A stretch of 64,000 nt of DNA from Candidatus Beckwithbacteria bacterium GW2011_GWC1_49_16 (GTDB lineage Bacteria > Patescibacteriota > Microgenomatia > UBA1400 > CG1-02-47-37): assembly GCA_001029675.1 (NCBI GenBank), contig CP011210.1, positions 256,193 through 320,192 of the forward strand. The letters run 5' to 3'. Made by a program: the position numbers and the translations under genes. This document shows positions 2,247 to 59,351 of the stretch, in pieces; the stretch's first letter is position 1; each line of letters opens with the position of its first letter. The notes beneath the pieces are model-generated. The model had not been told where the DNA came from. It was given only the letters and a program-made list of their open reading frames with translations, and did not search any database.

Positions 2247-3842
2247 ATGATGGCGGAGATGGAAAACAAACCGGTGAGTCAGGAGTTAGGCGCTGAAGGC
2301 GGTGCCAACTTGACGCCGCTTGAGAGCCTGATCGAGATTGGCAGAGAAGGCGGTCTGGTGACTTTTAATGATGTTTTAAGTTTTTTCCCCGACGTCGACG
2401 AACCCGGGGATTTTGATCGAGTATTGGATTCTCTACAGACAGCAGGGATATTGGTGGTTGAGGAAGAAGTTGAGTCGGAGCCAACGGATGAGGATTTGGC
2501 CGATAACGAACTGACCCGTCTAAGTAGCGGGACAGATTTAAAGCATCTTAATTCAGATGATATCGTGGGAACGTATCTTAGAGAAGTGAGCCGAGTGCCT
2601 TTGTTGACCGGCAAAGAGGAGGTTAATTTAGCCAAAAGGATTGAAAAAGGCAGGCAGGCGAGAGAAGAAGTGGCAGAGGGAGATTATGAGGCGGAAGAGT
2701 TGGGGAGGTTTCGGGAAATCATAGACAGTGGTGATGAGGCCTTTAAGCATTTAGTGGCTGCCAATGGGCGTTTGGTAGTCAGCGTGGCTAAAAAATACAT
2801 GGGGCGCGGCGTGCCTATTGAGGATTTAATCCAAGAAGGCAACATTGGCCTAATCAGGGCGGCTAAAAAGTTCGACTATCGTCGGGGTCATAAGTTTAGC
2901 ACTTACGCCACTTGGTGGATTCGGCAGGCTATCACTCGGGGGATTGCTGATCAGGGCAGGACGATCAGAGTTCCGGTTCATATGGGAGATAGTATTAACA
3001 AGATGCTTAAAGTGCAGCATCAGTTAGTCCAGAAACTTGGTCGAGAACCAACTAATGAAGAGGTGGCGGCGGAGCTTGATAAGACTAAGACGAGTAAAGC
3101 ACCGATTACGGCTAGTAAGGTAAAAATGATGAAGCAAGTTGCCAGAAGGCCGTTGTCTTTGGAGCAGCCGACCGGAGATGTTGAGGATGATTCGGTGTTG
3201 GGAGACTTTGTTGAGGATAAGACTGAACTACCGCCAGATGAAACTGCGGCAAACAACTTACTCAATGAACATTTGGCGGAGGTGATGGCAGATTTGCCGC
3301 CAAGAGAACAGCGGGTGTTGGAGTTAAGGTACGGCTTGGCGGACGGAATGGCTTACACTTTGGAAGAGGTCGGCAGAAAAATGGGTGTAACTAGAGAGAG
3401 GGTGAGGCAAATCGAGGCTCAGGCGTTATCGAGAATGAGACACCCGATGGTGAGAAAGAGGTTAAGAGAGTATTTGTCTGAAGATACATTTGAATATTTT
3501 AAGAAACCAAGTCTTGAGCGAGCGAGAGCGTCAAGAGAAAACATATTTAAGACTGGCAGTTTTGATAGCTACTATCTTAGTCTTTCCGGGAGAAAAAACC
3601 CGATGGTGGTAAGCAGCTTAGATCGATTGGGGGGCATAAGTTTGAGCGAAATTAATAAAACTCTTCTGGGATTTTTAAATTTTGAAAGAAGGGTGCTGAA
3701 AAAAGCTTTGGGAATAGAATTGGAAAGGGGTTTTGTTTATTCGGTGCCAGGGATTATGAAAGAGACCGGGTTATCGCGGTACGCGATTGAAGGAATTATT
3801 TCCAGGGGTTTGGCTGAAATAATGGCGAGATATAAAGGGTAG
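2247..3842 (+). CDS. rpoD: RNA polymerase sigma-70 factor RpoD carrying an extra C-terminal extension of about 120 aa
   Basis: Regions 1.2, 2 (YATWWIRQAITR), 3 and 4 (LEEVGRKMGVTRERVRQIEAQAL) are present. The ORF continues about 120 aa past the normal end and includes an HTH-like stretch (GIMKETGLSRYAIEGII). Confidence 0.85.
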   Translation: MMAEMENKPVSQELGAEGGANLTPLESLIEIGREGGLVTFNDVLSFFPDVDEPGDFDRVLDSLQTAGILVVEEEVESEPTDEDLADNELTRLSSGTDLKHLNSDDIVGTYLREVSRVPLLTGKEEVNLAKRIEKGRQAREEVAEGDYEAEELGRFREIIDSGDEAFKHLVAANGRLVVSVAKKYMGRGVPIEDLIQEGNIGLIRAAKKFDYRRGHKFSTYATWWIRQAITRGIADQGRTIRVPVHMGDSINKMLKVQHQLVQKLGREPTNEEVAAELDKTKTSKAPITASKVKMMKQVARRPLSLEQPTGDVEDDSVLGDFVEDKTELPPDETAANNLLNEHLAEVMADLPPREQRVLELRYGLADGMAYTLEEVGRKMGVTRERVRQIEAQALSRMRHPMVRKRLREYLSEDTFEYFKKPSLERARASRENIFKTGSFDSYYLSLSGRKNPMVVSSLDRLGGISLSEINKTLLGFLNFERRVLKKALGIELERGFVYSVPGIMKETGLSRYAIEGIISRGLAEIMARYKG

Positions 3843-5337: not shown

Positions 5338-6111
5338 TTGAGTATGAGGTGGGATAAAGTTATAGTTCACAAAGCTAGGAAATTAAGAACAGGAGGAAGA
5401 ACCTATTCAGAAATAAATGCTCAGCTGGGAGTTAATGTGCCGAAATCTACTTATAACTTTTGGTTTAAAGACTTAATTTTGCCAGAGTCGTACTACAAAA
5501 GAATTGAGAAGTTAAATAAGAAAAATTTTAGTAAGGCGATTCGGGCGGCTCAAAAGATAAACAGGGAAAAATTGATGGCCAGGATTGATAGGCTTAGGGG
5601 TAAAAATAAACACTTGGTTGGTAGAATTGACAAGCAAACAGGAAAATTGCTTTTGGCAATGTTGTATCTGTGTGAAGGGAATAAGTATCCTTCCCATCAG
5701 GCTCTGCGGTTTGGCAGTTCCCATCCGGCAATGTTGAGATTGTTCATTGCTTTATTAAGGAGTTGCTTTAGGCTTGATGAAAATAAAATTAGAGGAGAGT
5801 TGCAATGCCGGGCCGACCAAGATACAAGAAAGCTGCAAAAATTTTGGAGTAAGGTAACAGGAATTTCCTTAAGTAGATTCTATCCAGCAAGAATTGATAA
5901 AAGGACAATAAATAAGCCGACAAAAAAGAGAGATTACAAGGGAGTTTTTGTTGTCAATTACTTTGACGTAGAAGTACAACTTGAGTTACAATTACTGGGT
6001 GAGTATTTAGGAGAAGAAGGGCCCGTAGCTCAGTTGGTAGAGCGCCTGCATGGCATGCAGGAGGTTTCAGGGGTTCGAGCCCCCTCGGGTCCACAGTTTA
6101 CTTCAACTTAG
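5338..6111 (+). CDS. HTH-domain protein with a LAGLIDADG-like motif (putative homing-endonuclease-like). The ORF runs in-frame through tRNA-Ala
   Basis: N-terminal HTH (RTYSEINAQLGVNVPKSTY). LLAMLYLCEGNKY resembles a single LAGLIDADG motif with an acidic residue plus Gly. No stop codon before the tRNA, so the last 30 codons are tRNA sequence. Confidence 0.35.
   Translation: MSMRWDKVIVHKARKLRTGGRTYSEINAQLGVNVPKSTYNFWFKDLILPESYYKRIEKLNKKNFSKAIRAAQKINREKLMARIDRLRGKNKHLVGRIDKQTGKLLLAMLYLCEGNKYPSHQALRFGSSHPAMLRLFIALLRSCFRLDENKIRGELQCRADQDTRKLQKFWSKVTGISLSRFYPARIDKRTINKPTKKRDYKGVFVVNYFDVEVQLELQLLGEYLGEEGPVAQLVERLHGMQEVSGVRAPSGPQFTST
6019..6093 (+). tRNA. tRNA-Ala (anticodon GGC)
   Basis: GGGCCCGTAGCTCAGTTGGTAGAGCGCCTGCATGGCATGCAGGAGGTTTCAGGGGTTCGAGCCCCCTCGGGTCCA; G3:U70 identity pair present; anticodon loop AUGGCAU. 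Confidence 0.85.
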
Positions 6112-6271
6112 TGGTTTCTTTGTGCAAGGTGTGCTGGCGGCAAACCTTGCAGTATTTTTTTAAAGATAGCTTTTCGGTAGTGGTGGTGCGGTTCTTTTGG
6201 GAAATGTAGTTTTGGGAACCGCAGACAGAGCACTTAAAAGCGATTAAAATTCTTGGTCCTTTTTTAGCCAT
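6098..6271 (-). CDS. rpmG: 50S ribosomal protein L33
   Basis: Hand translation gives MAKKGPRILIAFKCSVCGSQNYISQKNRTTTTEKLSLKKYCKVCRQHTLHKETTKLK, with the Cys4 zinc-ribbon pattern of L33. It is below the 60-aa cutoff of the ORF track. Confidence 0.85.
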   Translation of the reverse strand: MAKKGPRILIAFKCSVCGSQNYISQKNRTTTTEKLSLKKYCKVCRQHTLHKETTKLK

Positions 6272-6474: not shown

Positions 6475-7134
6475 TTACGCCAGCCGTCTAACTTTTTCCA
6501 GCACTGCCTGCCAGTTTTTACAGGGAACGATGTTGATATCCGAGCGGGGGGCCTGGTCGGGGTAGTCGTAAAGGAACAGAACTCCTTGATAGTTTTTAGA
6601 CAAATCTTTAGCTAGCTGGGGGTGGTCGTCGACCATACCGATTACCTGGGGGTAAAGGTATTCTAAGACTTTGGCTTTCCAGGAGAGGCTTTCCGGGAGT
6701 TTAACTCCGGGGGTGCGGTAGGCGACTTCGGCTTGGGGAAAGCCGTATTTTTTGAGCCAGACTCGGGTGCCGGGCATGACCGACTTGGACCGGGCGGTAA
6801 GATAAACCACCACCGGGATAATTTGGTGAATTTGGTTGACGATGTGGTTGGCGTTTTTGATTAAGGGAAAATCGCGATGGAGTCTGTCGTCGTGGCGGAC
6901 TTGCTTTTCCCAGGCGCGAACCTCTTTGCCGCTCCAGTAGGGAGCATAGTAGGAGTAGCGGTATTTTTGTTGTACTTCTTCCACGCTCAAACCTTCGGGG
7001 TTGCCGAATTTTTCCATCAAACCTTTGATCCAAAAGTCACCGGTGCGGGCCAAGGTGTCGTCAACGTCGACGGCTAAACCCTTGAGTTTCTTTTTCTTGA
7101 GCTTGGCTTTAAGGTCTTTGATAAATGGGTGCAT
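6475..7134 (-). CDS. HAD-superfamily hydrolase
   Basis: DVDDTL (DxDxT motif I) near the N-terminus; 219 aa. Confidence 0.6.
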   Translation of the reverse strand: MHPFIKDLKAKLKKKKLKGLAVDVDDTLARTGDFWIKGLMEKFGNPEGLSVEEVQQKYRYSYYAPYWSGKEVRAWEKQVRHDDRLHRDFPLIKNANHIVNQIHQIIPVVVYLTARSKSVMPGTRVWLKKYGFPQAEVAYRTPGVKLPESLSWKAKVLEYLYPQVIGMVDDHPQLAKDLSKNYQGVLFLYDYPDQAPRSDINIVPCKNWQAVLEKVRRLA

Positions 7135-7780
7135 AGTTTAATGATTATAGCAACTTGTGATAAATTATCCTCTATGACGATAATAGAACGGGAAAGGGCG
7201 GGTGTGGCTCCAAGACTTGATGAGGCCCAAGGTTTGATAGTCGAGCTTAGTCAACGGTTGGAAACAGGGCTGGCGTTTTTGCTGGTTGATGGTCCGGTGG
7301 CCAGCGGTAAGACAGAGTTGGTTAAGGGGTTGAAGAGCGAATTTAATGGTCTTATGGGTGGGGTCGAGCCCACAGTAATTGAGGTTGACTGGGCAGTGCA
7401 GTCGCGAGAATATAGGAGTCAACATCCAGAAAAGCTTAATCGACACCAGGCTTGGTTCAGGCTGCACCGCCATTATGGTCTTCTACATCAGTATTTAAGA
7501 GGACAAGAGAATGGGGAATTAAGCATTACTCATAAAAATTTTTACCAAGCACAAAGTCGAACCAATAACTATTATGGTGGAGGCACCTTTGGAAGACAAA
7601 GTAAGGCGAATAAGGGAGAGAGCCAGGGCAAGAAATCAGGACCCCGATGAGCAGGAGAGGCGGATGCTAGAGGTGTTTGAAAAGGATTGGCTGTCAAGGC
7701 GGGAAGAGGTGTTGGCTCTGGCTGGTGGGGTGGCAGACTCAACCGAGGGGGAGTTTTTAGTGAGAAGGAATGGGGACTGA
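7129..7780 (+). pseudogene. P-loop NTPase / nucleoside-kinase-like gene split by a +1 frameshift (ORFs 7129-7650 and 7574-7780)
   Basis: Walker A LLVDGPVASGKTELV in the first ORF. The first ORF ends in low-complexity junk while the overlapping frame 7574-7780 reads as normal protein. Confidence 0.35.
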
Positions 7781-7785
7781 GAGTG

Positions 7786-7811
7786 GTGCTGGGGCCAGGG
7801 TTCGAACCTGG
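7786..7811 (-). repeat. 26-nt duplicate of the 3' end of tRNA-Tyr (att-like direct repeat)
   Basis: gtgctggggccagggttcgaacctgg is identical to 10111-10136, which is the T-arm plus acceptor 3' strand of the intact tRNA-Tyr. Confidence 0.7.
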
Positions 7812-7831
7812 TTTGGTAGTACAATAAACTT

Positions 7832-8395
7832 ATGTTAAAGATTAAGTTATATAAAGATTTACCTGAGGAGTTGAGATCAAAATATTCTAAACTGAAGAGG
7901 GGTGTTTTTGTTGGTGAAGCTCAGGAAGAAGAAGATGAGGGAATTGAACACGAAGAGGAATATTGTAGTGAAGCAGATCTTATCTGTTATTTAATTGCTT
8001 ATGAGGATGAGGAGATAATTGGGGGCTTAGAATTATTTAAAAGGAGGATTAAGCATCTTAATCAATTGATAATTTTAGGTGGGATTGGTAGTCTTTGGGT
8101 GAGAAAAGACAAAAGAAGGAGGGGTTTAGCTACAAAACTACTAAAGAAAGTAATGGAGGAATTAAAGATAAAAGGCTGTGAGGTGGTTTATTTATGTACT
8201 GATATAGGGAAATTAAAAAGTCTATATGCCCAAGTTGGCTTTGTGCCTTTAAAAAAGAATTATACTTTTGTAGGTAGGTCTGGGAAAAGATATTTTAAAG
8301 ATGACGGTATGATTGCTTTCATAAAACCTAAGGAAACTTTAAGGAAGATAGTTAAGAGTAAAGAACCATTCGATATTGGAGTAGGTAATTGGTGA
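7832..8395 (+). CDS. GNAT family N-acetyltransferase (AT-rich, probably horizontally acquired)
   Basis: RRRGLATKLLKKVMEEL acetyl-CoA-binding motif; codon usage visibly more AT-rich than the flanks. Confidence 0.7.
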   Translation: MLKIKLYKDLPEELRSKYSKLKRGVFVGEAQEEEDEGIEHEEEYCSEADLICYLIAYEDEEIIGGLELFKRRIKHLNQLIILGGIGSLWVRKDKRRRGLATKLLKKVMEELKIKGCEVVYLCTDIGKLKSLYAQVGFVPLKKNYTFVGRSGKRYFKDDGMIAFIKPKETLRKIVKSKEPFDIGVGNW

Positions 8396-8401
8396 ATTTG
8401 A

Positions 8402-8511
8402 TTGCCGAATTTTTCCATCAAACCTTTGATCCAAAAGTCGCCGGTGCGGGCCAAGGTGTCGTCAACGTCGACCGCTAAACCTTTGAGTTTCTTTTTCTTG
8501 AGTTTGGCTTT
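8402..8511 (-). pseudogene. duplicated 5' fragment of the HAD hydrolase gene, about 95% identical to 7001-7110
   Basis: Encodes ...KLKGLAVDVDDTLARTGDFWIKGLMEKFGN but lacks the start codon, and the C-terminal part diverges. Confidence 0.7.
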
Positions 8512-8537
8512 GTAGATTCGGTTTATAGTGTTGGAAT

Positions 8538-10067
8538 CTATTTTTCTCTTTGCTCTAATGACAGGGTGCCAAAATTGATTTTGGATTTTACAGGACCAAG
8601 AGGTTGCTGCAATTTTTGAAATTCAGGCACAAACATATATAGCCAACCTGGGTCAGATTCGTAGATAGAAAAGTGGGTTGGTTCAGATTGATCGGTTTTT
8701 TCAAGGAGGTCACTGCCGGTAATGCCAACTTGATCGGCGCCAACCCATTTGGGCAAATAACCATATTTTTGCTGGCCATACCAGGAGTAAAGATAAGCCC
8801 AAGTGGTGTTGTATTTATAAGGTGAAGTTAGGGTGGAAATGGAGAAGTTTTGTTTGTCGGCGGCTTGATAAGTGTAGTCAACCAGCTCGAGTAAACGGGA
8901 TAAGAAAGCTCCGTTTTGCACGGTGAAGATGTTAGAGTGAGATTGTCTGATTTGTTGAGCTGACTTAATGTTGGAGACAATAAACAAGATAGTGATTGAA
9001 CTGAGGCAGAAGGTTTTGAGCCAAGCTTGGTTTAGTTGTTTGAAAAGTAAGTACGAAAGAATGAGATAAAGAGCCGGTATTAGTCCGGTTAAAGAGTAGT
9101 AAGAAGCTCTGCCAGTGATTAGAAACATCAGTAAGGGACTGAATAGCCAAAGAACAAAAAAAACTTTCTTAGATGATGAAAGCTTTTTTAACAAGAAAAA
9201 AATTAAGGCGATTAAAATCAAAACAATTGAGAGGGTGGGGAAGGAAGGCAGAAGGGATAATTGGGCTTTTTGCAGATAAAGATTATAGATATTTTTAAGA
9301 ATACTCATTAGGCTAGGTTTTCCCCCTTCGTTAATATAGAAATCGCTAAGTTGATAAACATGATTAATGAGTAATTTGAGCTGAGTGAGAATCATAGTGC
9401 TGATAGCGATAAAGAAAATGGCCAATGATTTGAAGAAGTTTTTTGTGCCTAAAAAGAAGAAGTTTTTTTGCTTTAAGGTTTGGAAAAGGTAGATAGCTAA
9501 AGCAAGGCCGATTAAGTAAGTGGTGTAGAGGGTGGTTTGAATAGAAATGCCTAGGAATAGAGCAGTGAGGGGGAGGAATTTTTTTTGTTTTTTAAACAAG
9601 GATTGCCAAAGGTAATAGTGGAAGAAAGGGACAGACCAGGTAGTTAAGCTGGGAGCGCCGAGCCATGATCCGACTACAGCAGCGTCAACCGAGAAAGCAT
9701 AAAGCACAGAAGCCCAGATGCCAACTAGGCGAGATTGAAAGATTGTTTTACTAATTAAGAAGATGGGGATGACGGTTAGGGAACTTAAAAGGCTTAAGCC
9801 TAAAGTGGGGATTAATGGGTCACCGTGGGAGAGGGTGTATAAAGGGCCAATAACATAATAGTATAAAACACCGCCGTACAGTCTGTCGTTGGTGCTGCTG
9901 CTTGAAGGACCTTGAATTTTTAAATCTTTGTTTTCAAGAATTGATCGTGAAACGATGGCGTCTCGGGCTTGTTGAAAATAAAATTCAAAGTGATTATCCC
10001 TGATAAGATACCAGCGGAATAAGAAGCTTAGAGTGATTAAACTCACCAGAATGAGCTTTTGCCTCAT
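8538..10067 (-). CDS. polytopic membrane protein, possibly a GT-C-fold glycosyltransferase (ArnT/PMT-like), AT-rich
   Basis: 509 aa with at least 10 predicted TM helices and a loop-rich architecture. No confident motif. Confidence 0.35.
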   Translation of the reverse strand: MRQKLILVSLITLSFLFRWYLIRDNHFEFYFQQARDAIVSRSILENKDLKIQGPSSSSTNDRLYGGVLYYYVIGPLYTLSHGDPLIPTLGLSLLSSLTVIPIFLISKTIFQSRLVGIWASVLYAFSVDAAVVGSWLGAPSLTTWSVPFFHYYLWQSLFKKQKKFLPLTALFLGISIQTTLYTTYLIGLALAIYLFQTLKQKNFFFLGTKNFFKSLAIFFIAISTMILTQLKLLINHVYQLSDFYINEGGKPSLMSILKNIYNLYLQKAQLSLLPSFPTLSIVLILIALIFFLLKKLSSSKKVFFVLWLFSPLLMFLITGRASYYSLTGLIPALYLILSYLLFKQLNQAWLKTFCLSSITILFIVSNIKSAQQIRQSHSNIFTVQNGAFLSRLLELVDYTYQAADKQNFSISTLTSPYKYNTTWAYLYSWYGQQKYGYLPKWVGADQVGITGSDLLEKTDQSEPTHFSIYESDPGWLYMFVPEFQKLQQPLGPVKSKINFGTLSLEQREK

Positions 10068-10111
10068 TGAATGATTATAAAATTTTAGCTGGTTGGTTGC
10101 CAGCGGTATAG

Positions 10112-10194
10112 TGCTGGGGCCAGGGTTCGAACCTGGGTAGGCTTGCGCCGCGAGTTTTACAGACTCGTGTGTTTGACCACTCCACCACCCCAGC
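10112..10194 (-). tRNA. tRNA-Tyr (anticodon GUA), type II with a long variable arm
   Basis: Reverse complement is GCTGGGGTGGTGGAGTGGTCAAACACACGAGTCTGTAAAACTCGCGGCGCAAGCCTACCCAGGTTCGAACCCTGGCCCCAGCA. Confidence 0.85.
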
Positions 10195-10225
10195 GTGAGA
10201 ATATTTTAGCAGATTTTGTTTGGGG

Positions 10226-10299
10226 AGCCGCCTTTCGGATTCGAACCGAAGACCTGCTGTTTACAAAACAGCTGCTCTGGCCGGCTGAGCTAAGGCGGC
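10226..10299 (-). tRNA. tRNA-Thr (anticodon UGU)
   Basis: Reverse complement is GCCGCCTTAGCTCAGCCGGCCAGAGCAGCTGTTTTGTAAACAGCAGGTCTTCGGTTCGAATCCGAAAGGCGGCT. Confidence 0.8.
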
Positions 10300-10528: not shown

Positions 10529-11008
10529 ATGGTGTCAATAGCTATGGCTGAAGAAGGAAGAGTAGAAAGAGAAGTTTATTTAGAAAGTTTGTCTCAGTCT
10601 GACCGTGAGAACTTAGGCTTGATAATGACGGCTTTTCTCGATTATTTAGATACAGAAAATCTTACAGGAGAACTTCTGGTTGTCGGTGGAAGCGTTGTGC
10701 CTGAAACTAGAGGCACAAAGCGTAAAGACATTGATTTAGTGCCGTTGATTGATAACCAAAGCTCGTTTGAGGATTTTGAAAAATTGGTGACTTTTTTTCG
10801 TGACAAAACAGAATTTATGAAGATAAAGGTAATAAGGCCGATTATTGACGAGGAGTTTGGAGATCCGGAGATTTTAAGACATGATGGTTCGTTTATCTTA
10901 CTGCCGGACGAGGGGACACCTTTTGAATTTATTAGAATTGATCCAACCGTTGATAAGGGAGATCGTTTTTTTAGCGTGTTGTTACCTAAAGCAACAGGTT
11001 CAAAATAA
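10529..11008 (+). CDS. minimal nucleotidyltransferase (Pol-beta superfamily, MNT-like)
   Basis: VVGGSVVPETRGTKRKDIDLV matches the GS-x11-DxD nucleotidyltransferase signature; 159 aa. Confidence 0.5.
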   Translation: MVSIAMAEEGRVEREVYLESLSQSDRENLGLIMTAFLDYLDTENLTGELLVVGGSVVPETRGTKRKDIDLVPLIDNQSSFEDFEKLVTFFRDKTEFMKIKVIRPIIDEEFGDPEILRHDGSFILLPDEGTPFEFIRIDPTVDKGDRFFSVLLPKATGSK

Positions 11009-13861: not shown

Positions 13862-15985
13862 TTAGAGTTCTTCCAGCTTGTCTTTGACGGTTTGGTTGGC
13901 GGGATTTAAGTAATCAAGGATGTATTGGTATTGAACGCGGGCCAGATCGAGTTGGCCGGCGTCTTGATAAAGGGAACCTAGGGCAAAACGGGCGGCTTCG
14001 TAGTTTGGTTTTAAGTCGATGGTTTTTTCCAGAATTTGTTGGGCCAGGCCGTTTTGACCCATTTGCACGTACAAAAGCCCTAGGTTGTAGTAGAGTTTGG
14101 CGTCGGTGGGCGAAAGCCTTAGGGTAGTTTCAAAGGCAGACAGAGCCTGCCCCCGGTAGTTTTCGTCGATGGTGGATAAAAGCAGGAAAATCTGGATGCG
14201 GGACTTCCAGTAGTTGAGGTGAACTTGGTTTTGTTGGTTGACAACATCGATTTGGGAGACGGCCTCTTTGACCATCTGGTCGCGGACGGTAGCGGCTTGG
14301 GTGGCCAAGACAGGGTCGGAATCGGTAAGTGTCTGTTGGTGGTAAAGAACGGCCAGTTTGGCGGCGGCCTCGGCGTACTCGGAGCGGAACAACGGCTCGT
14401 CAGGTTGGCTGTCGACGGACTGCTTGAGGGTGAGAAAGCCGTTTAAGATTTGGTCGGCGGCAACAAGGTTTTTACCGGTGTTGAAAGCGACGTCGGCGCG
14501 CCACATGGTAACCAGACCGAAAGCAAAGTAGGCGGCGGTTAGCCAGGCGGCGGTAAGGAAAAGGGATTGTTGGTTGTTGAGGGCTGATGGTTGAGTCGCT
14601 TGGTCGGTTTGAGGGGAAGTGAGGGAAAAAGCCAGTGCCGGCCACAAAAAGAAAAACAAAGACACGGGGACGACGGCAAAGCCGAAGAAGTTGGAGACGG
14701 ATAAGCCGATAAAGCCTGCCAGCAGGGCAATTTTCAATTCCCAATTTTCAATTTTCAAACTTTTTAGACACCAAATTGTAAACCAAATTTGCAGCAGCAA
14801 ATAGCTGCCTAAGCCAAAAATGCCCGTGGTAGCTAAAAAATTAAGGTATTCGTTGTGGGCTTTGTTGTAAAGAAAGTCCCATTCGGAAAGAAGGTTGTGG
14901 GCTTGGGGTTTGAAGTTGTAGTAGGAGTAGGCAAAAGTTTCTACGCCCGAACCAAACCAGGGGTAGGCGCGCCAGACATCAAGCGCCCCCTGCCAAACCA
15001 CGTTTCTTATTTCCTGGGAACTGGAGCCGCCCAAGGTAATGGCCGGAGGGGCAATCTCGTTTCCACCGTCCGAGGAGTCACTTCGTGCCACCTCGGAGGA
15101 GGAAACTTCAACACCACTCCGGGAGCGGAGAAACTCTTTGAAAGTGGGGGTCAAGTCGGTGCCGACGAGGCCGGCGATTAGGGCTAAAGCGGCGCTGGTG
15201 AGTAAAAACTTTTTCCAGGGAAAAGATTTAATTTTTTGCTTAAATAAAATTAAGATCCAGAAGACGGAGTAGGCGACGGCCAGCCCGGCCAGGCCGGAGC
15301 GGGATTTGGTGTAGAGCAAAGTGAGGTAGAAAGCCGTAATCAGTAAACCGTAAACGGTAATTTGTAATTTTGTTCTGGCTTTTAAGAAAAAGGCCAGGGC
15401 GACGGGGATGAGGGTTAAAAGATAGGCGGCCAGCCAGTTGGGTTGGCCCAGGGTGGAAAAAACCCGGTTTTTGACGTCCTGGATCCAGACGTGTTCGTCG
15501 ATGCCGAAGTGCTCTAAGATGCCATAGAGGGAAACTATCAGGGCGGTGGTCAGGGTGACTTTTAAAAATTTTTTGGTAAAGCGGGGCGAGGCAAGGTTTG
15601 AGATATAGGCATAGTAGAGGGTGAGGTAGCTCGCGGTGGACACAAGGCCGCCGTTGAAGCGGGAGTAATAGCCCCAAAGCGAAGTGTGGCGGTCGATGGA
15701 AAATACGGTTGAAACAAGTTGGGAGAGGAAAAATAGAAGTATTGGAATATCAAACGGGGTGCGCCTGAAAATCAAGCGCCGGGCGAGGATCATTTTGCTC
15801 ACCCAGGCGGCGGCGATAACCAGGGTGAAAAAATAAACTGCCAGAATCTTGTTAAACTCAAAGAGTTCGTAGTTAACCGGCGTTAAAATCAGGGGAACGA
15901 TGATGGTCAGAGCGTAAAAGGAGGCGCGGATGATTTGGTCGAGACGATGATTCAAGCTCATTGCTGCCAGTATAACATGATACAA
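13862..15985 (-). CDS. O-antigen ligase (Wzy_C) family membrane protein with C-terminal TPR repeats
   Basis: Many TM helices; C-terminal TPR-like repeats (AKLYYNLGLLYVQMGQ...). Confidence 0.6.
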   Translation of the reverse strand: MYHVILAAMSLNHRLDQIIRASFYALTIIVPLILTPVNYELFEFNKILAVYFFTLVIAAAWVSKMILARRLIFRRTPFDIPILLFFLSQLVSTVFSIDRHTSLWGYYSRFNGGLVSTASYLTLYYAYISNLASPRFTKKFLKVTLTTALIVSLYGILEHFGIDEHVWIQDVKNRVFSTLGQPNWLAAYLLTLIPVALAFFLKARTKLQITVYGLLITAFYLTLLYTKSRSGLAGLAVAYSVFWILILFKQKIKSFPWKKFLLTSAALALIAGLVGTDLTPTFKEFLRSRSGVEVSSSEVARSDSSDGGNEIAPPAITLGGSSSQEIRNVVWQGALDVWRAYPWFGSGVETFAYSYYNFKPQAHNLLSEWDFLYNKAHNEYLNFLATTGIFGLGSYLLLQIWFTIWCLKSLKIENWELKIALLAGFIGLSVSNFFGFAVVPVSLFFFLWPALAFSLTSPQTDQATQPSALNNQQSLFLTAAWLTAAYFAFGLVTMWRADVAFNTGKNLVAADQILNGFLTLKQSVDSQPDEPLFRSEYAEAAAKLAVLYHQQTLTDSDPVLATQAATVRDQMVKEAVSQIDVVNQQNQVHLNYWKSRIQIFLLLSTIDENYRGQALSAFETTLRLSPTDAKLYYNLGLLYVQMGQNGLAQQILEKTIDLKPNYEAARFALGSLYQDAGQLDLARVQYQYILDYLNPANQTVKDKLEEL

Positions 15986-16018
15986 TTTCTAATTGACCTA
16001 ATTTTTAATTAACCTAAG

Positions 16019-17068
16019 ATGAAATTTATCAATCTTTTTCGGCTGGTGGGGAGTGAGTTGGCGGTGGATTTGGGAACGGCCAACACGGTGATCTTTGTCA
16101 CCGGTAAAGGGGTGGTGGTGCGCGAACCGACGGTGGTGGCCAGGAGAAAGAAATCCAAAGAACTTTTGGCGGTAGGGGGCGAGGCTAAAAAAATGCTGGG
16201 GAAAAACCCGGAAGAGATCGAGGTGGTCAAGCCTTTGGTCGATGGCGTGATTGCCGATTTTGACGCGGCCACCGACATGCTCAAATATTACTTTAGACAG
16301 CTTAGCCAGCACGGAGGGATCATTCCCCGGTTGTCGGGGCCAAAAGTCTTGGTGGGGATTCCCTCGGGGGTGACCGAGGTAGAAAAGCGGGCGGTGCAGG
16401 AAGCCGCGCTTAGCGCCGGCGCCCGCCAAGCCTTACTGGTGGAGGAGCCGATGGCGGCGGCGATCGGTTCGGGGCTGTCGGTAGAAAAGGCCGACGGCCA
16501 GCTGGTGGTGGACGTGGGCGGCGGTACCACCGAGATCGCAGTGGTGAGTTTGGCCGGGATAGTCATCAACAAATCGTTAAGGGTGGCAGGATCGGAAATG
16601 GACGAGGCGATCGTCAAGTCGACGAGGTTAAAGCACGGGCTACTCCTGGGGGAGGCGACGGCCGAGGAAGTGAAGATGGCCATCGGCAGCGCGGTACCGT
16701 TTCCCAGCGAAAAAAGCTATGTGGTGCGGGGAAGAAATTTGGAGAAGGGTTTACCCAAGTCGTTGAAGCTGGTAAGCGGCGAGGTAAGAGAGGCATTGGC
16801 GGGGGTGGTGCGCGAGATCGTGGCGGCGGTGGCGGGGACGATCGAGGAGACGCCGCCGGAGTTGGTGGCGGACATTTTAAAACACGGTATCGTTTTGTCG
16901 GGAGGCGGAGCCCAGCTTTATGGCATCGACAAGGTGATTGCTGAGGAAACTAGGATGCCGGTGTGGATGGTCGACGACCCCCAAGATGCGGTGGTCAGGG
17001 GCCTGGCGAAATTACTCCGAAACGGCAAACTTTTGGAGCAGGTTAAGGTGACAAGAGGCTTACGCTAA
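16019..17068 (+). CDS. mreB: rod shape-determining protein MreB
   Basis: DLGTANTVI actin-fold phosphate-1 motif; 349 aa. Confidence 0.9.
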   Translation: MKFINLFRLVGSELAVDLGTANTVIFVTGKGVVVREPTVVARRKKSKELLAVGGEAKKMLGKNPEEIEVVKPLVDGVIADFDAATDMLKYYFRQLSQHGGIIPRLSGPKVLVGIPSGVTEVEKRAVQEAALSAGARQALLVEEPMAAAIGSGLSVEKADGQLVVDVGGGTTEIAVVSLAGIVINKSLRVAGSEMDEAIVKSTRLKHGLLLGEATAEEVKMAIGSAVPFPSEKSYVVRGRNLEKGLPKSLKLVSGEVREALAGVVREIVAAVAGTIEETPPELVADILKHGIVLSGGGAQLYGIDKVIAEETRMPVWMVDDPQDAVVRGLAKLLRNGKLLEQVKVTRGLR

Positions 17069-17362
17069 ATTATTCTAATTACTAATTCCTAATTACTAAC
17101 TAAACACCAAAAAACCAATTACCAATGAACAAAGGGTTTGATTTGGAAGAAAGAACGGCTAAGTTTGGCGAAAAAGTGATACTGGTTAAATGCGCTACCA
17201 GCATTGGAGCCAATTACTGTGAAGCAGATGATGCGGAAAGCAGGAAAGACTTCAAACACAAAATTAAATCTTATTTTCAACTCAATTTATAAAAAGTTGT
17301 GAATTAGTTATTGGGTAATTTTGAATTTGTTAGAAATTAGATCAATTAGAAATTAGATATTG
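17068..17362. mobile_element. MITE-like element: remnant four-helix-bundle ORF flanked by imperfect inverted repeats of about 32 bp
   Basis: The left end (17068-17100, aattattctaattactaattcctaattactaac) is close to the reverse complement of the right end (17329-17362, gttagaaattagatcaattagaaattagatatt). Confidence 0.45.
17125..17292 (+). pseudogene. truncated four-helix-bundle protein (23S rRNA intervening-sequence protein family) remnant, 55 aa
   Basis: MNKGFDLEERTAKFGEKVILVKCATSIGANYCEADDAESRKDFKHKIKSYF matches the conserved SIGANYxEA...SxKDFxHK core but is internally deleted and C-terminally truncated. Confidence 0.5.
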
Positions 17363-17370
17363 AGTTAAGT

Positions 17371-18099
17371 ATGAAGTTAAGTAAGACAAAGGTTTATATA
17401 GTGTTGCTGCTAATCAGCGGTTTATTGTGGTGGGGTGATGGACGAGAATATTTTGACTGGTTAAGGCGGCCGGCGGCAAGGATTTTTCAACCTTTACGGG
17501 CCAAGCTGTATCAAACCCAAATTAAGCCAGAGCCGGAAAGGGCGGAGAAGCTGCAACAGCAGTACGATTTGCTGACTGTCGAGGCAATGAAGTTAAGAGA
17601 AGAAAACGAAAGTTTAAGAAAGCTTTTGGGGGCAAATTTACCGGCGTCGATGGCTTTTATCCCGGCTAAAATTTTAAAGCTTGATGAAGACGAAATCCGG
17701 CTTGATGTCGGCAGTGACCAGGGGGTCAAGACAGGCCAGACGGTGATCGGCGACGGGGCGCTTGTCGGTCAAGTGGTGGAGGTGACGGCGACCGAGGCGG
17801 TGGTGAGATTGCTTTTGAGCCAAGACAGCCGGGTCTTGGCGGTGACGGCCGGCGGGGCAGAGGGAGTGGTAGCGGGGTATTTGGCAGAGGCGGGGTTGAG
17901 ATTGACAGAGGTTTTAAACAAACATGAATTAAATCAGGGAGAGCTGGTGGTGAGTAAAGGAGGAGACGGGGTTAGGCCCGATTTGGGCATCGGCAGGGTG
18001 GCCGAGGTGTTCAAAGAGGACAGGCAAGTGTATCAGGAAGCCAAATTGGCCCCGATAGTTGATGTTTTAAGCTTAAATCAGGTGTTTGTGATCCGGTAA
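17371..18099 (+). CDS. mreC: rod shape-determining protein MreC
   Basis: N-terminal TM, coiled coil, then beta-rich domain (GDGALVGQVVEVTATEAVVRLL). Confidence 0.8.
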   Translation: MKLSKTKVYIVLLLISGLLWWGDGREYFDWLRRPAARIFQPLRAKLYQTQIKPEPERAEKLQQQYDLLTVEAMKLREENESLRKLLGANLPASMAFIPAKILKLDEDEIRLDVGSDQGVKTGQTVIGDGALVGQVVEVTATEAVVRLLLSQDSRVLAVTAGGAEGVVAGYLAEAGLRLTEVLNKHELNQGELVVSKGGDGVRPDLGIGRVAEVFKEDRQVYQEAKLAPIVDVLSLNQVFVIR

Positions 18100-23599: not shown

Positions 23600-24478
23600 A
23601 TGAGTCAAGACGAGCTCAAGTACTGGGTGGGGGTGGCCGGGTTTGCCGGCATGGGGATAAAGCGGTTTACACTACTTAAAAAATACTTCGGGTCGGTGGA
23701 AGCGATTTGGCAGGCGTCGACAGGTAAACTAATATCTTTGGGAATAAAACCGGAAATGGCTAAAAGTTGGCAGGTGTGGCGCGAGGGCCGCGATCTCGAT
23801 CGGGAGATAGAAAGGTTGGGTAAGGAACTGATTAAAGTTATTACCATTGAAGATAGCAGGTACCCTAAACTATTAAAAGAGATTGACTTACCGCCATTTA
23901 TCTTGTTTGTTAAAGGTAAGGTAAACGTCCTAAACAGGCGGGCGGTAGCGGTGGTGGGGACGAGAAAGGTCAGCAGTTACGGCCGGAGGGTAACGGGTGG
24001 TCTGGTTAGTGGTTTAGTCAAAGAAAAACTGGTAGTGGTGTCGGGTTTGGCGCGGGGGGTGGACAGTTTGGCCCATCGGGCCACTTTGGCCGCCCGCGGA
24101 GTGACGGTGGCGGTTTTGGGGCACGGTTTAGACCGGGTCTATCCGCCTGAGAATCGACCTCTGGCAGAAGAGATCGTTCGCTCTGGTGGAGCCATCGTCA
24201 GTGAGTACCCCTTGGGTTATGGGATTCAAAAAGGCAATTTTCCGGCCCGAAACAGGATTGTGGCCGGTTTAAGTCTGGGAGTGGTGGTGACCGAGGGGGC
24301 GCACCGCAGCGGCACCAAGATCACGGCCGGTTTTGCGGCAGACTTCGGCCGCGAGGTTTTTGCCGTACCCGGGCCGGTAGGCAGTCCGACGTCCGTCGGA
24401 CCGGCAGATTTGATTAAACAGGGGGCAAAATTGGTGACGGGGGTCGAGGACGTTTTAGAGGAGTTGCCGCGGGGTTGA
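23600..24478 (+). CDS. dprA: DNA-processing protein DprA (Smf)
   Basis: Rossmann-like core AVVGTRKVSSYGRRVTGGLVSGL...VVSGLARGVDSLAH. Confidence 0.85.
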   Translation: MSQDELKYWVGVAGFAGMGIKRFTLLKKYFGSVEAIWQASTGKLISLGIKPEMAKSWQVWREGRDLDREIERLGKELIKVITIEDSRYPKLLKEIDLPPFILFVKGKVNVLNRRAVAVVGTRKVSSYGRRVTGGLVSGLVKEKLVVVSGLARGVDSLAHRATLAARGVTVAVLGHGLDRVYPPENRPLAEEIVRSGGAIVSEYPLGYGIQKGNFPARNRIVAGLSLGVVVTEGAHRSGTKITAGFAADFGREVFAVPGPVGSPTSVGPADLIKQGAKLVTGVEDVLEELPRG

Positions 24479-27212: not shown

Positions 27213-28628
27213 TTGATGGCAAAAAAGCGAGGACGCTTAGTTGTGCGGTATGGGCCGATGTGGTCGGATAAAACCAGTTGGTTAATAAAGCAGTTTGGTA
27301 AAGTGGCTGACACATTGGCTTTTAAGCCCGATATTGATACCAGGTATACTAGAAAGCCGGTTTTAAGGACTCACGATGGAAAGAGCGTGCCGGCAGTAAT
27401 GGTGCCAATTGATCAACCAGAAAAGATTTTCGAGGCAGTAAAAAGAAAACGGGGGGTAATAAAACGAGTGCTGATTGATGAAACTAACTTTTTTTCTGGT
27501 GGTTTGGTGAAAGTAGTTAGAAATTTGATTGGAATGGGGATTGATGTTTATACTGCTGGGTTAATCTTGGATACCGACCTGCAAGACTTTGGTCCAACCA
27601 GGAAGTTAACTAGGATGGCCGATGAGGTGGTAGAAAGTTTTGCTAGGTGTGATTTTATGTTTTTAACTGGTAGGTGTGGGAGGAGAGCCAGGTTTAACTA
27701 TTTTAAAGCAAAAAAGGATACGCAAATTGTGGTGGGGGCCGATGAGTTGTACGGCGTAGCCTGTGAAGATCATTATCAGGCCCTTCACTTTAAGACTGGT
27801 AGTCAAAAACAGTGGTGGTCAAGAATTAAGAAGCTGGTTGGGGCTAATCACCAAAAGAGCGACTGGAGTTGGTTTAGGCGATTAAAGTTACCGTCTAAGA
27901 AAAGGAGGCCGTTAAAGTTTTCCTTTGACCGGTGGCCAAGAATCGAAGTAGTAGCAGACAGTATGCGGGTGGGTAAAACTACGGCGGCTAGGGCTTTGGG
28001 TATAGAGCTTAAAAAACTGGGTCTGCCAGTAAGAGTCAGTTTAGAGGATTGGTCGAATAATCCCTATTTGGAAAAGAGTTACCTTGATTCGTCGGAATGG
28101 ATACTTTTGTCACAAGAGTGGTTTGCTAAGAAAAAATTTGAGCAAATTAAACGTGGAGAGAAAGAAGCAATATTTATTCAGGATGTTAGTCCGGAGATGG
28201 ATTTTGCTTATGCTTTGACCAATGTGCTCATGGGTAGGATGTCAAAGGAGCATTTTAAGGATTACTTTAAGTTCTATTCTAGCCACAAATGGGAAAATCT
28301 GCCGGCTCCAGACGTATTGGTTTATTTGACGATTAGCGATGAAGCCTTAGTGAAAAGGGCGTTGGAGAGTGTTAGGGATCTGGAGAAGATTGATCCATCA
28401 TATTTTTTGTTGATGCGAGCGGTTAATCGAACCTGGCTGGCTGATTCAGACCATATGACGGTGGTTAATATTGATACTGACGACCTTGATTTTTCTAAAG
28501 AAGGCCCGGCTAGAAAAGCCTTAGCCGGGCAGGTTTTAAAAAAACTACACGATTTAGGCTGGAAGTGGGATAATAGTTTTACTGCTGAGATGAAAAGGCA
28601 GGATTGGTTTGCTATGGTAGCAATATGA
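27213..28628 (+). CDS. tdk: fusion protein: thymidine kinase (N-terminal, about 195 aa) plus deoxynucleoside kinase (C-terminal)
   Basis: TK: GPMWSDKTSWLI P-loop, LIDETNFF, CxxC zinc motif. dNK: VVADSMRVGKTTAARAL P-loop and ISDEALVKRALESVRDLEKIDPSYF lid region. Confidence 0.7.
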   Translation: MMAKKRGRLVVRYGPMWSDKTSWLIKQFGKVADTLAFKPDIDTRYTRKPVLRTHDGKSVPAVMVPIDQPEKIFEAVKRKRGVIKRVLIDETNFFSGGLVKVVRNLIGMGIDVYTAGLILDTDLQDFGPTRKLTRMADEVVESFARCDFMFLTGRCGRRARFNYFKAKKDTQIVVGADELYGVACEDHYQALHFKTGSQKQWWSRIKKLVGANHQKSDWSWFRRLKLPSKKRRPLKFSFDRWPRIEVVADSMRVGKTTAARALGIELKKLGLPVRVSLEDWSNNPYLEKSYLDSSEWILLSQEWFAKKKFEQIKRGEKEAIFIQDVSPEMDFAYALTNVLMGRMSKEHFKDYFKFYSSHKWENLPAPDVLVYLTISDEALVKRALESVRDLEKIDPSYFLLMRAVNRTWLADSDHMTVVNIDTDDLDFSKEGPARKALAGQVLKKLHDLGWKWDNSFTAEMKRQDWFAMVAI

Positions 28629-44890: not shown

Positions 44891-44931
44891 TACTTGACAA
44901 TATAGTAATACTTATTTATAGTAGTATTACT
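44889..44931 (+). promoter_or_regulatory. promoter (TTGACA, 17 nt, TATAGT) embedded in the inverted repeat agtaatact...agtattact (TA operator)
   Basis: agtaatacttgacaatatagtaatacttatttatagtagtattact. Confidence 0.4.
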
Positions 44932-45557: not shown

Positions 45558-45580
45558 TGTGTTAGACTATAAGAAATAAT

Positions 45581-52856: not shown

Positions 52857-52903
52857 GATTACTTCTTGACAAATCTTTACATTTAGTATATTCTTTACTT
52901 ATT

Positions 52904-53574: not shown

Positions 53575-53645
53575 GTTCACCTGGCGGGAAGTGACGTCGG
53601 AGCTTGGGGCTGGGATTTTAGGGGGAATTTTGATAGAGTAAACTC

Positions 53646-59329: not shown

Positions 59330-59351
59330 GGGGCTATGTTATACTGGGAAG

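Follow-up and report, generated by a model that had tools for sequence, protein, structure and literature searches.

A small tRNA-flanking islet with interleaved flank scars in a groundwater Beckwithbacteria genome

How far can a direct repeat of a tRNA 3' end be trusted as the footprint of an integrated element? Direct repeats of tRNA fragments are routinely accepted as proving integration by an integrase, and island-finding software makes use of them; the locus analyzed here, from the genome (∼1.05 Mb) of a groundwater Beckwithbacteria (CPR), carries such a repeat within a 64-kb stretch of DNA, hereafter the window. The initial annotation had read the AT-rich DNA between the two repeat copies as an integrated and since immobilized element. 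Across the locus, the order of elements is HAD(A)-X-B-GNAT-A'-Z-B', in which HAD is a hydrolase gene, X a P-loop pseudogene, GNAT an acetyltransferase gene, and Z a glycosyltransferase gene, A and A' are copies of part of the HAD gene, and B and B' are the tRNA repeat; scars of both flanks are interleaved. Much of the earlier reading stands (the DNA is inserted, foreign in composition, and free of detected recombinases, and the repeat is a true tRNA copy), but a single contiguous element it does not appear to be. We give an even chance to the view that the span 7135-10110 is instead a mosaic of several events in a slot that flanks a tRNA and is hypervariable; the best reading is construction largely by illegitimate or one-sided-homology recombination.

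A tRNA-derived repeat around AT-rich DNA

The tRNA-Tyr(gta) gene at one end of the islet (10111-10194, minus strand) is intact, as confirmed with both ARAGORN and Rfam (10112-10194, 59.3 bits), and has tRNA-Thr(tgt) (10224-10299, minus strand) as its conserved upstream partner; the Rfam search of the region yielded five tRNAs and no other structured RNA. The 3' 26 nt of tRNA-Tyr (repeat B', GTGCTGGGGCCAGGGTTCGAACCTGG) occur exactly twice in the window, at 10111-10136 and, in direct orientation, at 7786-7811 (repeat B, an orphan copy, minus strand), with a chance expectation of 0 (100 shuffles, up to 3 mismatches permitted), in full agreement with the repeat first reported. Repeat B comprises the T-arm, the 3' acceptor strand, and the discriminator, together the final 25 nt of tRNA-Tyr, and 1 nt beyond. 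An identity block running from the T-stem to the 3' end is a frequent look of integrase attachment sites; that B spans exactly from the first base of the T-stem to the tRNA 3' end counts against an integrase-free mosaic. Precise excision at the 26-mer would be expected to leave a circular junction reading ...GCCAGCGGTATA-26-mer-TTTGGTAGTACAAT... and an empty site reading ...GGGGACTGAGAGT-26-mer-GTAGGCTTGCGCC...

The enclosed DNA is as AT-rich as had been claimed, with a GC content of 0.380 over 7812-10110 versus 0.487 for the window, and the 2-kb windows that cover it are the top tetranucleotide outliers of the 64 kb (z 4.2 and 3.8). It should be noted that composition is no proof of recent transfer: the accessory gene p159 (10529-11008, plus strand), in a separate variable slot on the far side of the tRNA pair, is just as AT-rich (GC 0.383, GC3 0.325), and nonetheless two relatives have homologues of it at that position, L016 (53%) and L043 (50%), the other relatives having unrelated genes there.

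In its strongest form, the element of the initial annotation would be one that encoded an integrase, carried at least GNAT, and inserted site-specifically at the T-loop/3' end of the tRNA-Tyr of a HAD-X-tRNA-Tyr host, producing the 26-nt repeat as attL/attR, after which the integrase was lost and Z and the HAD fragment entered in a separate event. In its favor, the repeat is exact, starts at the T-stem, and stops just where the tRNA does, no other DNA of the window deviates as strongly in composition as the stretch that it encloses, and an acetyltransferase and a surface glycosyltransferase are typical cargo of small islands. Z, the newest gene, also lies nearest the tRNA, like the tandem accretion at tRNA attachment sites that Williams reportedly described in 2002, with the newest gene nearest the tRNA. 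For reasons given below, we regard this course as possible but rather unlikely.

That the arrangement is not real, being either a chimera of metagenome assembly or a set of chance repeats in a vertically inherited AT-rich stretch, is very improbable. The genome is metagenome-derived, a related contig (L039) has a suspicious exact 99-nt duplication of tRNA-Tyr, and AT-rich genes can, as p159 demonstrates, reside in a genome over the long term. However, 4.1 kb of the locus are 100% identical in the three other assemblies compared as DNA (two NCBI genomes and one JGI metagenome, from separate samples and sources). An ENA assembly has the same gene order, as do all the contigs read out of 78-100 collection blocks that contain proteins of the locus, and one of the contigs on record is 1.05 Mb long. 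Moreover, the repeats measure 26 nt and 110 nt (the latter 96% identical) and are not k-mer sized, no 26-mer copy is expected by chance, and X, GNAT and, with the exception of L016, Z are missing from the loci of relatives. With NCBI and JGI sequences identical and the ENA assembly and other contigs in the same order, we rejected an assembly artefact.

The older tRNA-Tyr/HAD junction and its fragments

On the side away from the tRNA, the islet borders an intact gene of 219 aa (6475-7134, minus strand), the ancestral downstream neighbor of tRNA-Tyr, which a weak PF24694 match and a PHROG polynucleotide-kinase/phosphatase-like match assign to the HAD-superfamily hydrolases and which has a host-like GC3 of 0.63. 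Codons 9-45 of this functional copy (repeat A, 7001-7110, minus strand) recur in the middle of the islet as A' (8402-8511, minus strand), a non-coding remnant that is startless, cut off at both ends, and host-like in GC (0.46); A and A' are 96% identical, with 4 mismatches in 110 nt. This second repeat was overlooked in the initial annotation. A/A' and B/B' are the sole long near-identical repeats in the 64 kb, and both are host-like in composition. In strain L025, a 13-nt deletion in A' takes out 8501-8513, which shows that the remnant is decaying neutrally.

Both edges of A' are informative. Toward Z, a linker of 26 nt (8512-8537) without homology to the HAD 5' end separates it from the Z stop codon, and homology to L016 stops 4 nt beyond that codon. 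Toward GNAT, a 12-nt sequence (TTGGTGAATTTG, 8389-8400) at the GNAT/HAD-fragment junction also occurs in the HAD gene at 6823-6834. The 12-mer match is exact, abuts A' directly, and is collinear with it (p ∼4e-4 from 20,000 shuffles, in a post hoc test), A' beginning after a gap that equals HAD 6835-6998 and is flanked by GGTTGACGA / GGTTGCCGA. Because the C-terminus of GNAT is native, the 12-mer is a coincidental microhomology, and we read such a microhomology at an internal junction as a signature of illegitimate recombination.

In ∼17 related contigs, the HAD gene (orthologues 58%-72% identical) lies 3-52 nt after tRNA-Tyr. This synteny shows an older state of the locus in which HAD directly followed tRNA-Tyr, and thus the entire span 7135-10110 (3.0 kb, from HAD to tRNA-Tyr), X included, is inserted. 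The initial annotation had predicted an empty site with tRNA-Tyr followed by the P-loop gene; it is not seen, HAD taking that place in the ∼17 contigs. As judged by sequence, A' and B copy the two sides of the older tRNA-Tyr/HAD junction, and besides them and the 12-mer the islet holds no further tRNA or HAD pieces and no remnants of the genes that occupy the slot in relatives.

The slot itself, from tRNA-Tyr to HAD or to tRNA-Thr(ggt), has genes that vary by genome between strictly syntenic flanks. L029 has a 411-nt insertion exactly at the tRNA-Tyr/HAD junction, without repeats; slots on the other sides of the tRNAs likewise differ in gene content from relative to relative, tRNA 3'-end repeats occur in none of them, and no recombinase was called in those loci of relatives that were annotated. 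Three contigs of a related species (L034, L035, and L054), 93%-99% identical, differ by a 582-nt insert in the neighboring slot. Closest to the present arrangement is L016, in which Z follows tRNA-Tyr in the same position and orientation (spacer 39 nt versus 43 nt here), the aligned tRNA-Tyr-to-Z stretch being 74% identical at the nucleotide level with the short spacer aligning weakly; it has no repeat, no GNAT, and no HAD. L016 thereby comes part of the way to the relative with unchanged gene order and no repeat that the initial annotation had named as speaking against its element.

No intermediate (HAD-X-tRNA-Tyr, or the duplication without Z) is present among the retrieved genomes, and the order of events proposed below is deduced from one end state. 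Searching for HAD and X protein relatives turned up no strain of this species in another state, and a 95%-identical HAD variant (P0001) has no contig on record. The exact pattern of the tRNA-Tyr 3' end gave 0 matches in metagenome_contigs and genome_contigs, where the species is apparently not searchable. L039, the only apparent parallel, with two tRNA-Tyr copies and an exact 99-nt repeat in a contig that mixes two strain alleles, was considered as an independent case of the stacking of alleles and downgraded, since assemblers commonly use a k-mer of 99 nt and the contig may be a chimera.

Genes within the slot and their sources

Gene X (7129-7780, plus strand) is a decayed, kinase-like P-loop pseudogene with the Walker A motif GPVASGKT and a stop codon 5 nt away from repeat B. 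It is split in two frames (7129/7174-7650 and 7574-7780), a feature overlooked in the initial annotation. Among 1.84 billion representatives, it has just three remote homologues (243-269 aa), relative to which it carries a frameshift and a deletion of ∼30 aa; in the strain variant P0161, the deletion differs. X is absent from this locus in all relatives compared and has no relatives in genome_contigs. The idea of X as a native neighbor was accordingly dropped; X is an inserted near-orphan pseudogene.

The two genes that the initial annotation named between the repeats, an acetyltransferase and a large polytopic GT-C-like protein, are both present, and at full length. GNAT (7832-8395, plus strand) encodes an intact N-acetyltransferase of 187 aa (PF00583, E 7e-13; PF13527, E 7e-12) and is the most AT-rich gene of the patch (GC 0.333, GC3 0.277). 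It aligns end to end with 10 homologues of 185-191 aa, the C-terminal GVGNW included, and, whereas A' decays, shows just one change, of 3 nt and in frame. The closest homologue outside the species is 58% identical; P0139 and P0141 (54% and 52%) occupy ordinary chromosomal loci of low-GC CPR, with neither tRNA-Tyr nor an integrase.

Z (8538-10067, minus strand) is intact and encodes a polytopic protein of 509 aa, predicted from its structural model to be a divergent PMT_2/GT39-like glycosyltransferase with the GT-C membrane fold. The AlphaFold model (pLDDT 90.5) has ArnT (5f15) as its best Foldseek match in the PDB (E 1e-6, TM 0.61/0.58), followed by PglB/STT3, ALG, and PMT. Pfam gives no match to Z itself; PF13231 is matched by 11 of the 26 aligned members of its family. 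Z has 108 homologues, all ∼500-520 aa long. GT-C glycosyltransferases of the ArnT/PMT/STT3 type have a conserved acidic residue in the first periplasmic loop, for which R35-D36-A37, unchanged in all 26 aligned sequences, is a candidate. The spacer of 43 nt that separates Z from tRNA-Tyr contains a promoter-like site (10074-10103, minus strand; CTGGCA-18-TATAAT), recognized by consensus match alone (10 of 12 positions). GNAT and Z, whose frames are preserved from strain to strain, are probably expressed, as accessory envelope or modification functions.

The two cassettes differ in composition (GC3 0.28 for GNAT versus 0.44 for Z; Z has a GC of 0.395 and a GC3 of 0.435), and their best homologues are found in different genomes and unrelated contexts, which suggests that they are cargo of separate origin. 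They are also parted by the HAD fragment at 8402-8511, and the DNA between the tRNA repeats is accordingly not one contiguous element. The L016 orthologue, the nearest to Z, is 73% identical and lies directly after tRNA-Tyr there too; the Z homologues P0033 and P0034 are found at ordinary chromosomal loci, again with neither tRNA-Tyr nor an integrase. Genomes of relatives with Z or GNAT homologues have a GC content of 0.32-0.40, matching both cassettes. No donor and recipient sequences from which a joint could be reconstructed were found in the databases, 73% (Z) and 58% (GNAT) being the highest amino-acid identities.

Searches for a mobile origin gave little. IMG/VR, queried with GNAT and Z, returned no relatives, and an origin from a phage or other element was dropped; a 21-nt T-arm pattern matched two high-GC viral contigs (L023 and L024), which we attribute to unrelated tRNA-like sequence or chance. 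An integron-like cassette was likewise dropped, there being no integrase and no attC-like repeats.

Routes of assembly and what the locus means

The locus can be accounted for most economically by a series of events in the older tRNA-Tyr/HAD junction. X would have entered first, between HAD and tRNA-Tyr. The GNAT cassette would then have joined the T-arm of tRNA-Tyr on one side by illegitimate recombination and HAD on the other, near codon 100, at the 12-nt microhomology, with duplication of the stretch between the two joints, such that tRNA and HAD were both kept. In the tRNA-proximal copy, the duplicated X and HAD start would have been replaced by Z, supplied by a lower-GC relative with an L016-like tRNA-Tyr-Z arrangement; the conserved tRNA genes would have provided the homologous anchor (the candidate stretch is the one where Z abuts tRNA-Tyr and tRNA-Thr), and the illegitimate joint would lie at HAD codon 9. 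Such an entry would amount to homology-facilitated illegitimate recombination (HFIR), plausibly after natural transformation. Small deletions would subsequently have trimmed the HAD remnant. In this series an integrase origin of the 26-nt repeat is possible, but unneeded.

Against an integrase element stands the outcome of the search for the enzyme: in line with the initial annotation, neither an integrase nor an excisionase was found between the repeats, no recombinase was found in the islet or among the called genes of window positions 1-20 kb, and none was detected at 20-64 kb, where 36 ORFs are 170 aa or longer and 30 of these were scanned with Pfam, the search covering the 64-kb window of the ∼1.05-Mb genome. 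No relative of GNAT or Z, viral or from an element, turned up in IMG/VR, Z sits at the same site without a repeat in L016, and other tRNA-adjacent insertions in the ∼17 related contigs lack 3'-end repeats. Nor does integration by itself explain the host HAD fragment and the 12-nt microhomology junction. An islet of 2.3 kb in which two cassettes are unrelated is much too small for any autonomous element, so that integration, loss of the integrase, and a later illegitimate event would all be required, more events than the mosaic needs.

A further possibility is that two alleles from strains of the same species, HAD-X-tRNA-Tyr and (truncated HAD)-Z-tRNA-Tyr, were stacked in tandem by one unequal illegitimate exchange, through or next to a pre-existing GNAT cassette. 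The order A-X-B / A'-Z-B' is that expected of two alleles head to tail, the 3.6% divergence of A and A' fits a strain-level difference, HAD is dispensable, being absent from L016, and L034, L035, and L054 provide strain-level alternative alleles in the neighboring slot. However, no strain with a single allele was recovered and the stacked form is found in all contigs of the species, and the exchange would require a strain whose HAD was dead and whose GNAT was already in place. We consider it distinctly unlikely; it is, moreover, a variant of the mosaic explanation and hard to separate from it.

In its outline, the locus resembles tRNA-targeting islands: foreign AT-rich accessory DNA lies just downstream of an intact tRNA gene, a distal exact direct repeat copies the T-arm and acceptor 3' end, and the cargo is of the accessory or surface-modification type. 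It differs from tyrosine-integrase islands in that neither integrase nor excisionase was found and it measures just 2.3 kb, in that the foreign DNA is not contiguous (a host HAD fragment sits midway between two cassettes of different origins), and in that L016 has the tRNA-proximal cassette but no repeat and the expected empty site is unseen in relatives.

Transformation is well established to yield HFIR, which, together with related illegitimate events of insertion and duplication, has been described in Acinetobacter baylyi, Streptococcus pneumoniae, and Pseudomonas stutzeri (PMC3240628). As in its products, foreign single-gene segments stand beside a highly conserved candidate anchor, here tRNA genes, there is a microhomology junction (12 nt), and the recipient locus shows scars in the form of short pieces, duplicated or truncated. 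The setting may also be alike, with dprA present and competence known in the phylum: the window encodes DprA (23600-24478) and RecR (59307-59951), natural competence has been shown in cultivated Patescibacteria (Saccharibacteria only; PMC10633639), and competence has been proposed as a route of horizontal gene transfer in Patescibacteria (PMC10633639; PMC12455944). In experimental HFIR, however, the usual outcome is insertion with deletion, and the ∼1-kb target duplication proposed here is less common, and neither a donor nor an intermediate was recovered. The locus is also comparable to the flexible ("additive") islands of streamlined environmental bacteria, as a variable slot between conserved core genes by tRNAs, but it holds one to three genes and has kept the scars of both flanks inside the slot, so that its accretion can be read.

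More generally, and only tentatively, we propose that in integrase-poor CPR/Patescibacteria transformation-driven recombination may stack accessory genes beside tRNAs and leave "pseudo-att" scars that mimic integrase footprints. The conserved tRNA would act as the homologous anchor, with an illegitimate joint at the opposite end, and, as the tRNA is essential and has to survive, events would be retained only if they duplicate its 3' part. If true, the present locus, which combines scars from either flank with a joint at a microhomology, would let an integrase-free route to tRNA-linked islands be read from an example.

As a single locus that offers no experimental handle, the islet is of modest practical importance; among small genomic islets it is fairly ordinary, with an internal structure that is instructive. 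In a streamlined CPR genome, with no recombinase found within 64 kb, a tRNA-fragment repeat can be part of a patchwork that includes a microhomology junction and a duplicated piece of the opposite flank, and the footprint alone is therefore insufficient evidence for a mobile element. For Beckwithbacteria, the locus documents a very small, recurrently used variable slot at a conserved tRNA cluster, and the intact GT-C glycosyltransferase and GNAT that it holds may matter for the host and phage interactions of these episymbionts.

A 26-nt repeat of tRNA-Tyr and the DNA it encloses

The 26-mer GTGCTGGGGCCAGGGTTCGAACCTGG is found in direct orientation at 7786–7811 (B) and 10111–10136 (B') and nowhere else in the window, even when up to 3 mismatches are allowed; no chance match to a 26-mer is expected in the window. 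B' is part of a minus-strand tRNA-Tyr(gta) gene that is intact (10111/10112–10194; ARAGORN and Rfam), so the repeat comprises the T-arm, the 3' acceptor strand, the discriminator, and one further base. On its outer side, B stops where the tRNA 3' end does; on its inner side (7811/7812), the breakpoint falls on the first base of the T-stem. The initial annotation had described this repeat and the AT-richness of the DNA between its copies (the islet, 7812–10110), and both descriptions hold: the GC content of the islet is 0.380 versus 0.487 for the window, and the two top tetranucleotide outliers of the 64 kb are 2-kb windows over the islet (z = 4.2 and 3.8). The GNAT acetyltransferase (7832–8395; PF00583, E = 7e-13) and the large polytopic GT-C-like protein reported between the repeats (here called Z; 509 aa, 8538–10067, minus strand) are likewise present, intact and full length. 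PF13231 (PMT_2) is matched by 11 of the 26 members of the Z family, and the AlphaFold model of Z (pLDDT 90.5) resembles the GT-C enzymes ArnT, PglB/STT3, ALG, and PMT. GC3 is 0.28 for GNAT, 0.44 for Z, and 0.56–0.66 for core genes of this genome. Genomes with homologues of either gene have a GC content of 0.32–0.40, matching the cassettes seen here, and the homologues other than the L016 Z described below (58%–59% for Z, 52%–54% for GNAT) lie at unrelated chromosomal loci that lack both tRNA-Tyr and integrases. NCBI assigns the GNAT protein to Candidatus Beckwithbacteria bacterium GW2011_GWB1_47.

The islet had been read as an immobilised integrase-type element. The extent of B/B' is exactly as expected for a T-loop/3'-end attachment site, and integrase-type excision would leave an empty site ...GGGGACTGAGAGT + GTGCTGGGGCCAGGGTTCGAACCTGG + GTAGGCTTGCGCC and a circle ...GCCAGCGGTATA + 26-mer + TTTGGTAGTACAAT. 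As had been noted, the DNA that the repeats enclose encodes no recombinase. Nor did one turn up in the called genes at window positions 1–20 kb or in a Pfam scan that covered 30 of the 36 ORFs with a length of 170 aa or more at 20–64 kb. Among the hallmarks of a tRNA-targeting integrative element, the locus displays the repeat alone; a recombinase (in the genes and ORFs just listed), contiguity, and an empty site (in relatives) were each looked for and not found.

A second, interleaved repeat and the older state of the locus

The islet contains a second repeat that had been missed. A' (8402–8511) is 96% identical (4 mismatches in 110) to A (7001–7110), that is, to codons 9–45 of the flanking HAD-like gene (6475–7134, minus strand). 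The window has no long near-identical repeats besides A/A' and B/B'. These are interleaved, the plus-strand order being A (HAD 5' part), X, B (tRNA fragment), GNAT, A' (HAD fragment), Z, and B' (intact tRNA-Tyr). A' is truncated at both ends, has no start codon, and has a host-like GC content of 0.46. X, the "P-loop gene" (7129–7780; GC3 0.43), occupies two reading frames and has only three remote homologues of 243–269 aa among 1.84 billion representative proteins, relative to which it carries a frameshift and has lost ∼30 residues; a different deletion is seen in one strain variant. These features mark X as a decaying near-orphan pseudogene.

Orthologues of HAD (58%–72% identity) were found in ∼17 related contigs, in which the order is tRNA-Thr(tgt), tRNA-Tyr, HAD, tRNA-Thr(ggt), L33, and tRNA-Ala, with tRNA-Trp further along in contigs long enough to show it. 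HAD starts 3–52 nt from the tRNA-Tyr 3' end in all of these except L029, a contig into which, by comparison with its 88%-identical sister L007, 411 nt carrying an 84-aa ORF have been inserted precisely at the tRNA-Tyr/HAD junction, without a repeat. This adjacency implies an older state in which HAD directly followed tRNA-Tyr; the empty site that had been predicted, with the P-loop gene after tRNA-Tyr, was not seen, and relatives have HAD there. Judged by this comparison, the whole of 7135–10110 (the patch between HAD and tRNA-Tyr), including X, is inserted, and A/A' and B/B' are copies of the two sides of the pre-existing locus.

One related contig, L016 (genome GC 0.39; core proteins 64%–82% identical to those of the window, no closer than those of other relatives), has a 73%-identical Z directly after tRNA-Tyr, in the same orientation and at a spacing of 39 nt versus 43 nt here. 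Identity to the window is 74% from tRNA-Tyr to 4 nt beyond the Z stop, with weak alignment in the short spacer, and L016 has no GNAT, HAD, or tRNA-Tyr repeat. This arrangement weakens the case for an integrase origin of B/B', as does the absence of such tRNA-repeat scars at the other tRNA-flanking insertions in relatives.

The locus is not an assembly artefact. A 4.1-kb stretch around the islet is 100% identical across two NCBI genomes and a JGI metagenome contig, and the gene order is the same in an ENA assembly and in every contig read out of the 78–100 collection blocks holding its proteins. An artefact or chance feature is effectively excluded. A slightly different strain (L025) shares the arrangement, with a 13-nt deletion at the junction of A' and its linker (8501–8513) and an in-frame 3-nt deletion in GNAT, showing that the HAD fragment is drifting while GNAT is held in frame.

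Neighboring tRNA-flanking slots and other window features

An AT-rich 257-aa ORF (p257; 5338–6111, plus strand, GC3 0.39), with no match in Pfam, NCBIfam, PHROG, or PDB, overlaps tRNA-Ala(ggc) (6019–6094); its conserved part stops just short of the tRNA, which the ORF reads through, and this tRNA-Ala has the opposite orientation to that in ∼17 relatives. In L016, homologous ORFs lie directly against the 5' ends of tRNA-Thr(ggt) and tRNA-Trp (5573–6199 and ∼9054–9626). In another related contig, L013, one (7760–8326) lies against the 5' end of tRNA-Thr(ggt), and 21 nt of the tRNA 5' part are duplicated upstream of the ORF (7628–7648). The p257-type ORFs may be a selfish family tied to tRNA 5' ends. 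A second variable slot lies beyond the tRNA pair, flanked by the M50 peptidase gene and tRNA-Thr(tgt), and holds a 159-aa protein without function prediction (p159; 10529–11008, plus strand). Homologues (50%–53%) occupy this position only in L016 and L043, and other relatives have unrelated genes there (395 aa, 635 aa, GGDEF); p159 has a very low GC3 (0.33) yet shares its position with these two contigs, so low GC alone is no proof of recent transfer. The tRNA-Thr(tgt)/tRNA-Tyr spacer is ∼25 nt in the window and most relatives, with inserts of 0.2–0.7 kb in several (L016, at 2770–3070, L030, L032, L035, L043, and L054); L034, L035, and L054, 93%–99% identical to one another, show a 582-nt insert difference there.

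Elsewhere, a nucleoside/nucleotide kinase cluster (27213–30033, plus strand; a 471-aa TK-dNK fusion, a 259-aa dNK, and a 221-aa thymidylate kinase) contains a diverged 99-nt repeat (27932–28030/28741–28839, 72%) because its dNK domains are paralogous; a further dNK lies at 40900–41556. Short AT-rich patches are also present at 17001–17700, 44701–45700, and 52901–53600 (600-nt GC down to 0.33–0.39). In or near two of these three are AT-rich TAATTGACCTAAT-like repeats, namely a 53-nt imperfect inverted pair (17304–17356/56722–56774) and related direct repeats (15973–16018, 56713–56742).

Junctions and proposed assembly of the patch

The patch is composite, carries host-derived scars of both flanks, and contains no recombinase, and at least one of its junctions has the signature of illegitimate recombination. 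The most informative junction is GNAT/A'. The 12 nt abutting A' (8389–8400, TTGGTGAATTTG) are identical to HAD 6823–6834 and collinear with A', a match length reached in 4 of 10,000 shuffles (a post hoc test). Because the GNAT C terminus (GVGNW-stop) is kept in all homologues, the match is a coincidental microhomology that the GNAT 3' end shares with the HAD antisense strand near codon 100, of the kind exploited in illegitimate recombination. Homology to HAD is taken up again in A' at the equivalent of position 6999; the 164 nt lost before it have GGTTGACGA and GGTTGCCGA on either side, as is typical of a slippage deletion. On its other side, A' is separated from Z by a 26-nt linker unrelated to the HAD start. 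The X stop codon and B are 5 nt apart, and spacing this close resembles native adjacency of X to a tRNA 3' end. Were B/B' of integrase origin, the integrase would have to have been lost and an illegitimate event to have followed in order to account for A' and the microhomology; we regard such an origin as less likely than not.

In the most economical history that we can infer, X would have entered first, between HAD and tRNA-Tyr. The GNAT cassette would then have become linked at one end to the T-arm of the tRNA and at the other to HAD near codon 100, duplicating the ∼1 kb in between, such that an intact copy of each of the tRNA and HAD was kept. Z would next have displaced the duplicated X and HAD start from the copy nearer the tRNA. 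Its source would have been a relative of lower GC in which tRNA-Tyr and Z are arranged as in L016, with the conserved tRNAs providing the homologous anchor and the illegitimate joint falling at HAD codon 9, as in homology-facilitated illegitimate recombination (PMC3240628); the small deletions would have come last. We give this mosaic assembly without an integrase an even chance of being correct. A variant of it, in which a single exchange between two strains with alternative slot fillings stacked their alleles, seems distinctly unlikely. It should be noted that a contig with two complete tRNA-Tyr genes (L039), in an exact 99-nt repeat (100% identity, 2700–2798 and 2931–3029), was set aside as an independent example of stacking: 99 nt is a k-mer length often used by assemblers, and the contig combines L034-type with L054-type alleles. 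It also has a 28-nt deletion at the HAD start. It may be an assembly chimera rather than biology.

The window also encodes DprA (23600–24478, plus strand; DNA_processg_A, E = 3e-75) and RecR (59307–59951, plus strand), two proteins with a bearing on how this organism takes up and recombines DNA. Cultivated Patescibacteria have been shown to be naturally competent, and competence has been proposed as a route by which they exchange genes (PMC10633639, PMC12455944). The locus is similar to a degenerate genomic islet of the tRNA-linked type and conforms to the pattern in which small variable slots lie beside tRNA genes. It works most like a product of homology-facilitated illegitimate recombination or illegitimate insertion with duplication, although none of the genomes retrieved supplied a donor or an intermediate. 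Its main interest is as a warning that, in competent lineages poor in integrases, a repeated tRNA fragment should be read with caution as an integrase footprint.
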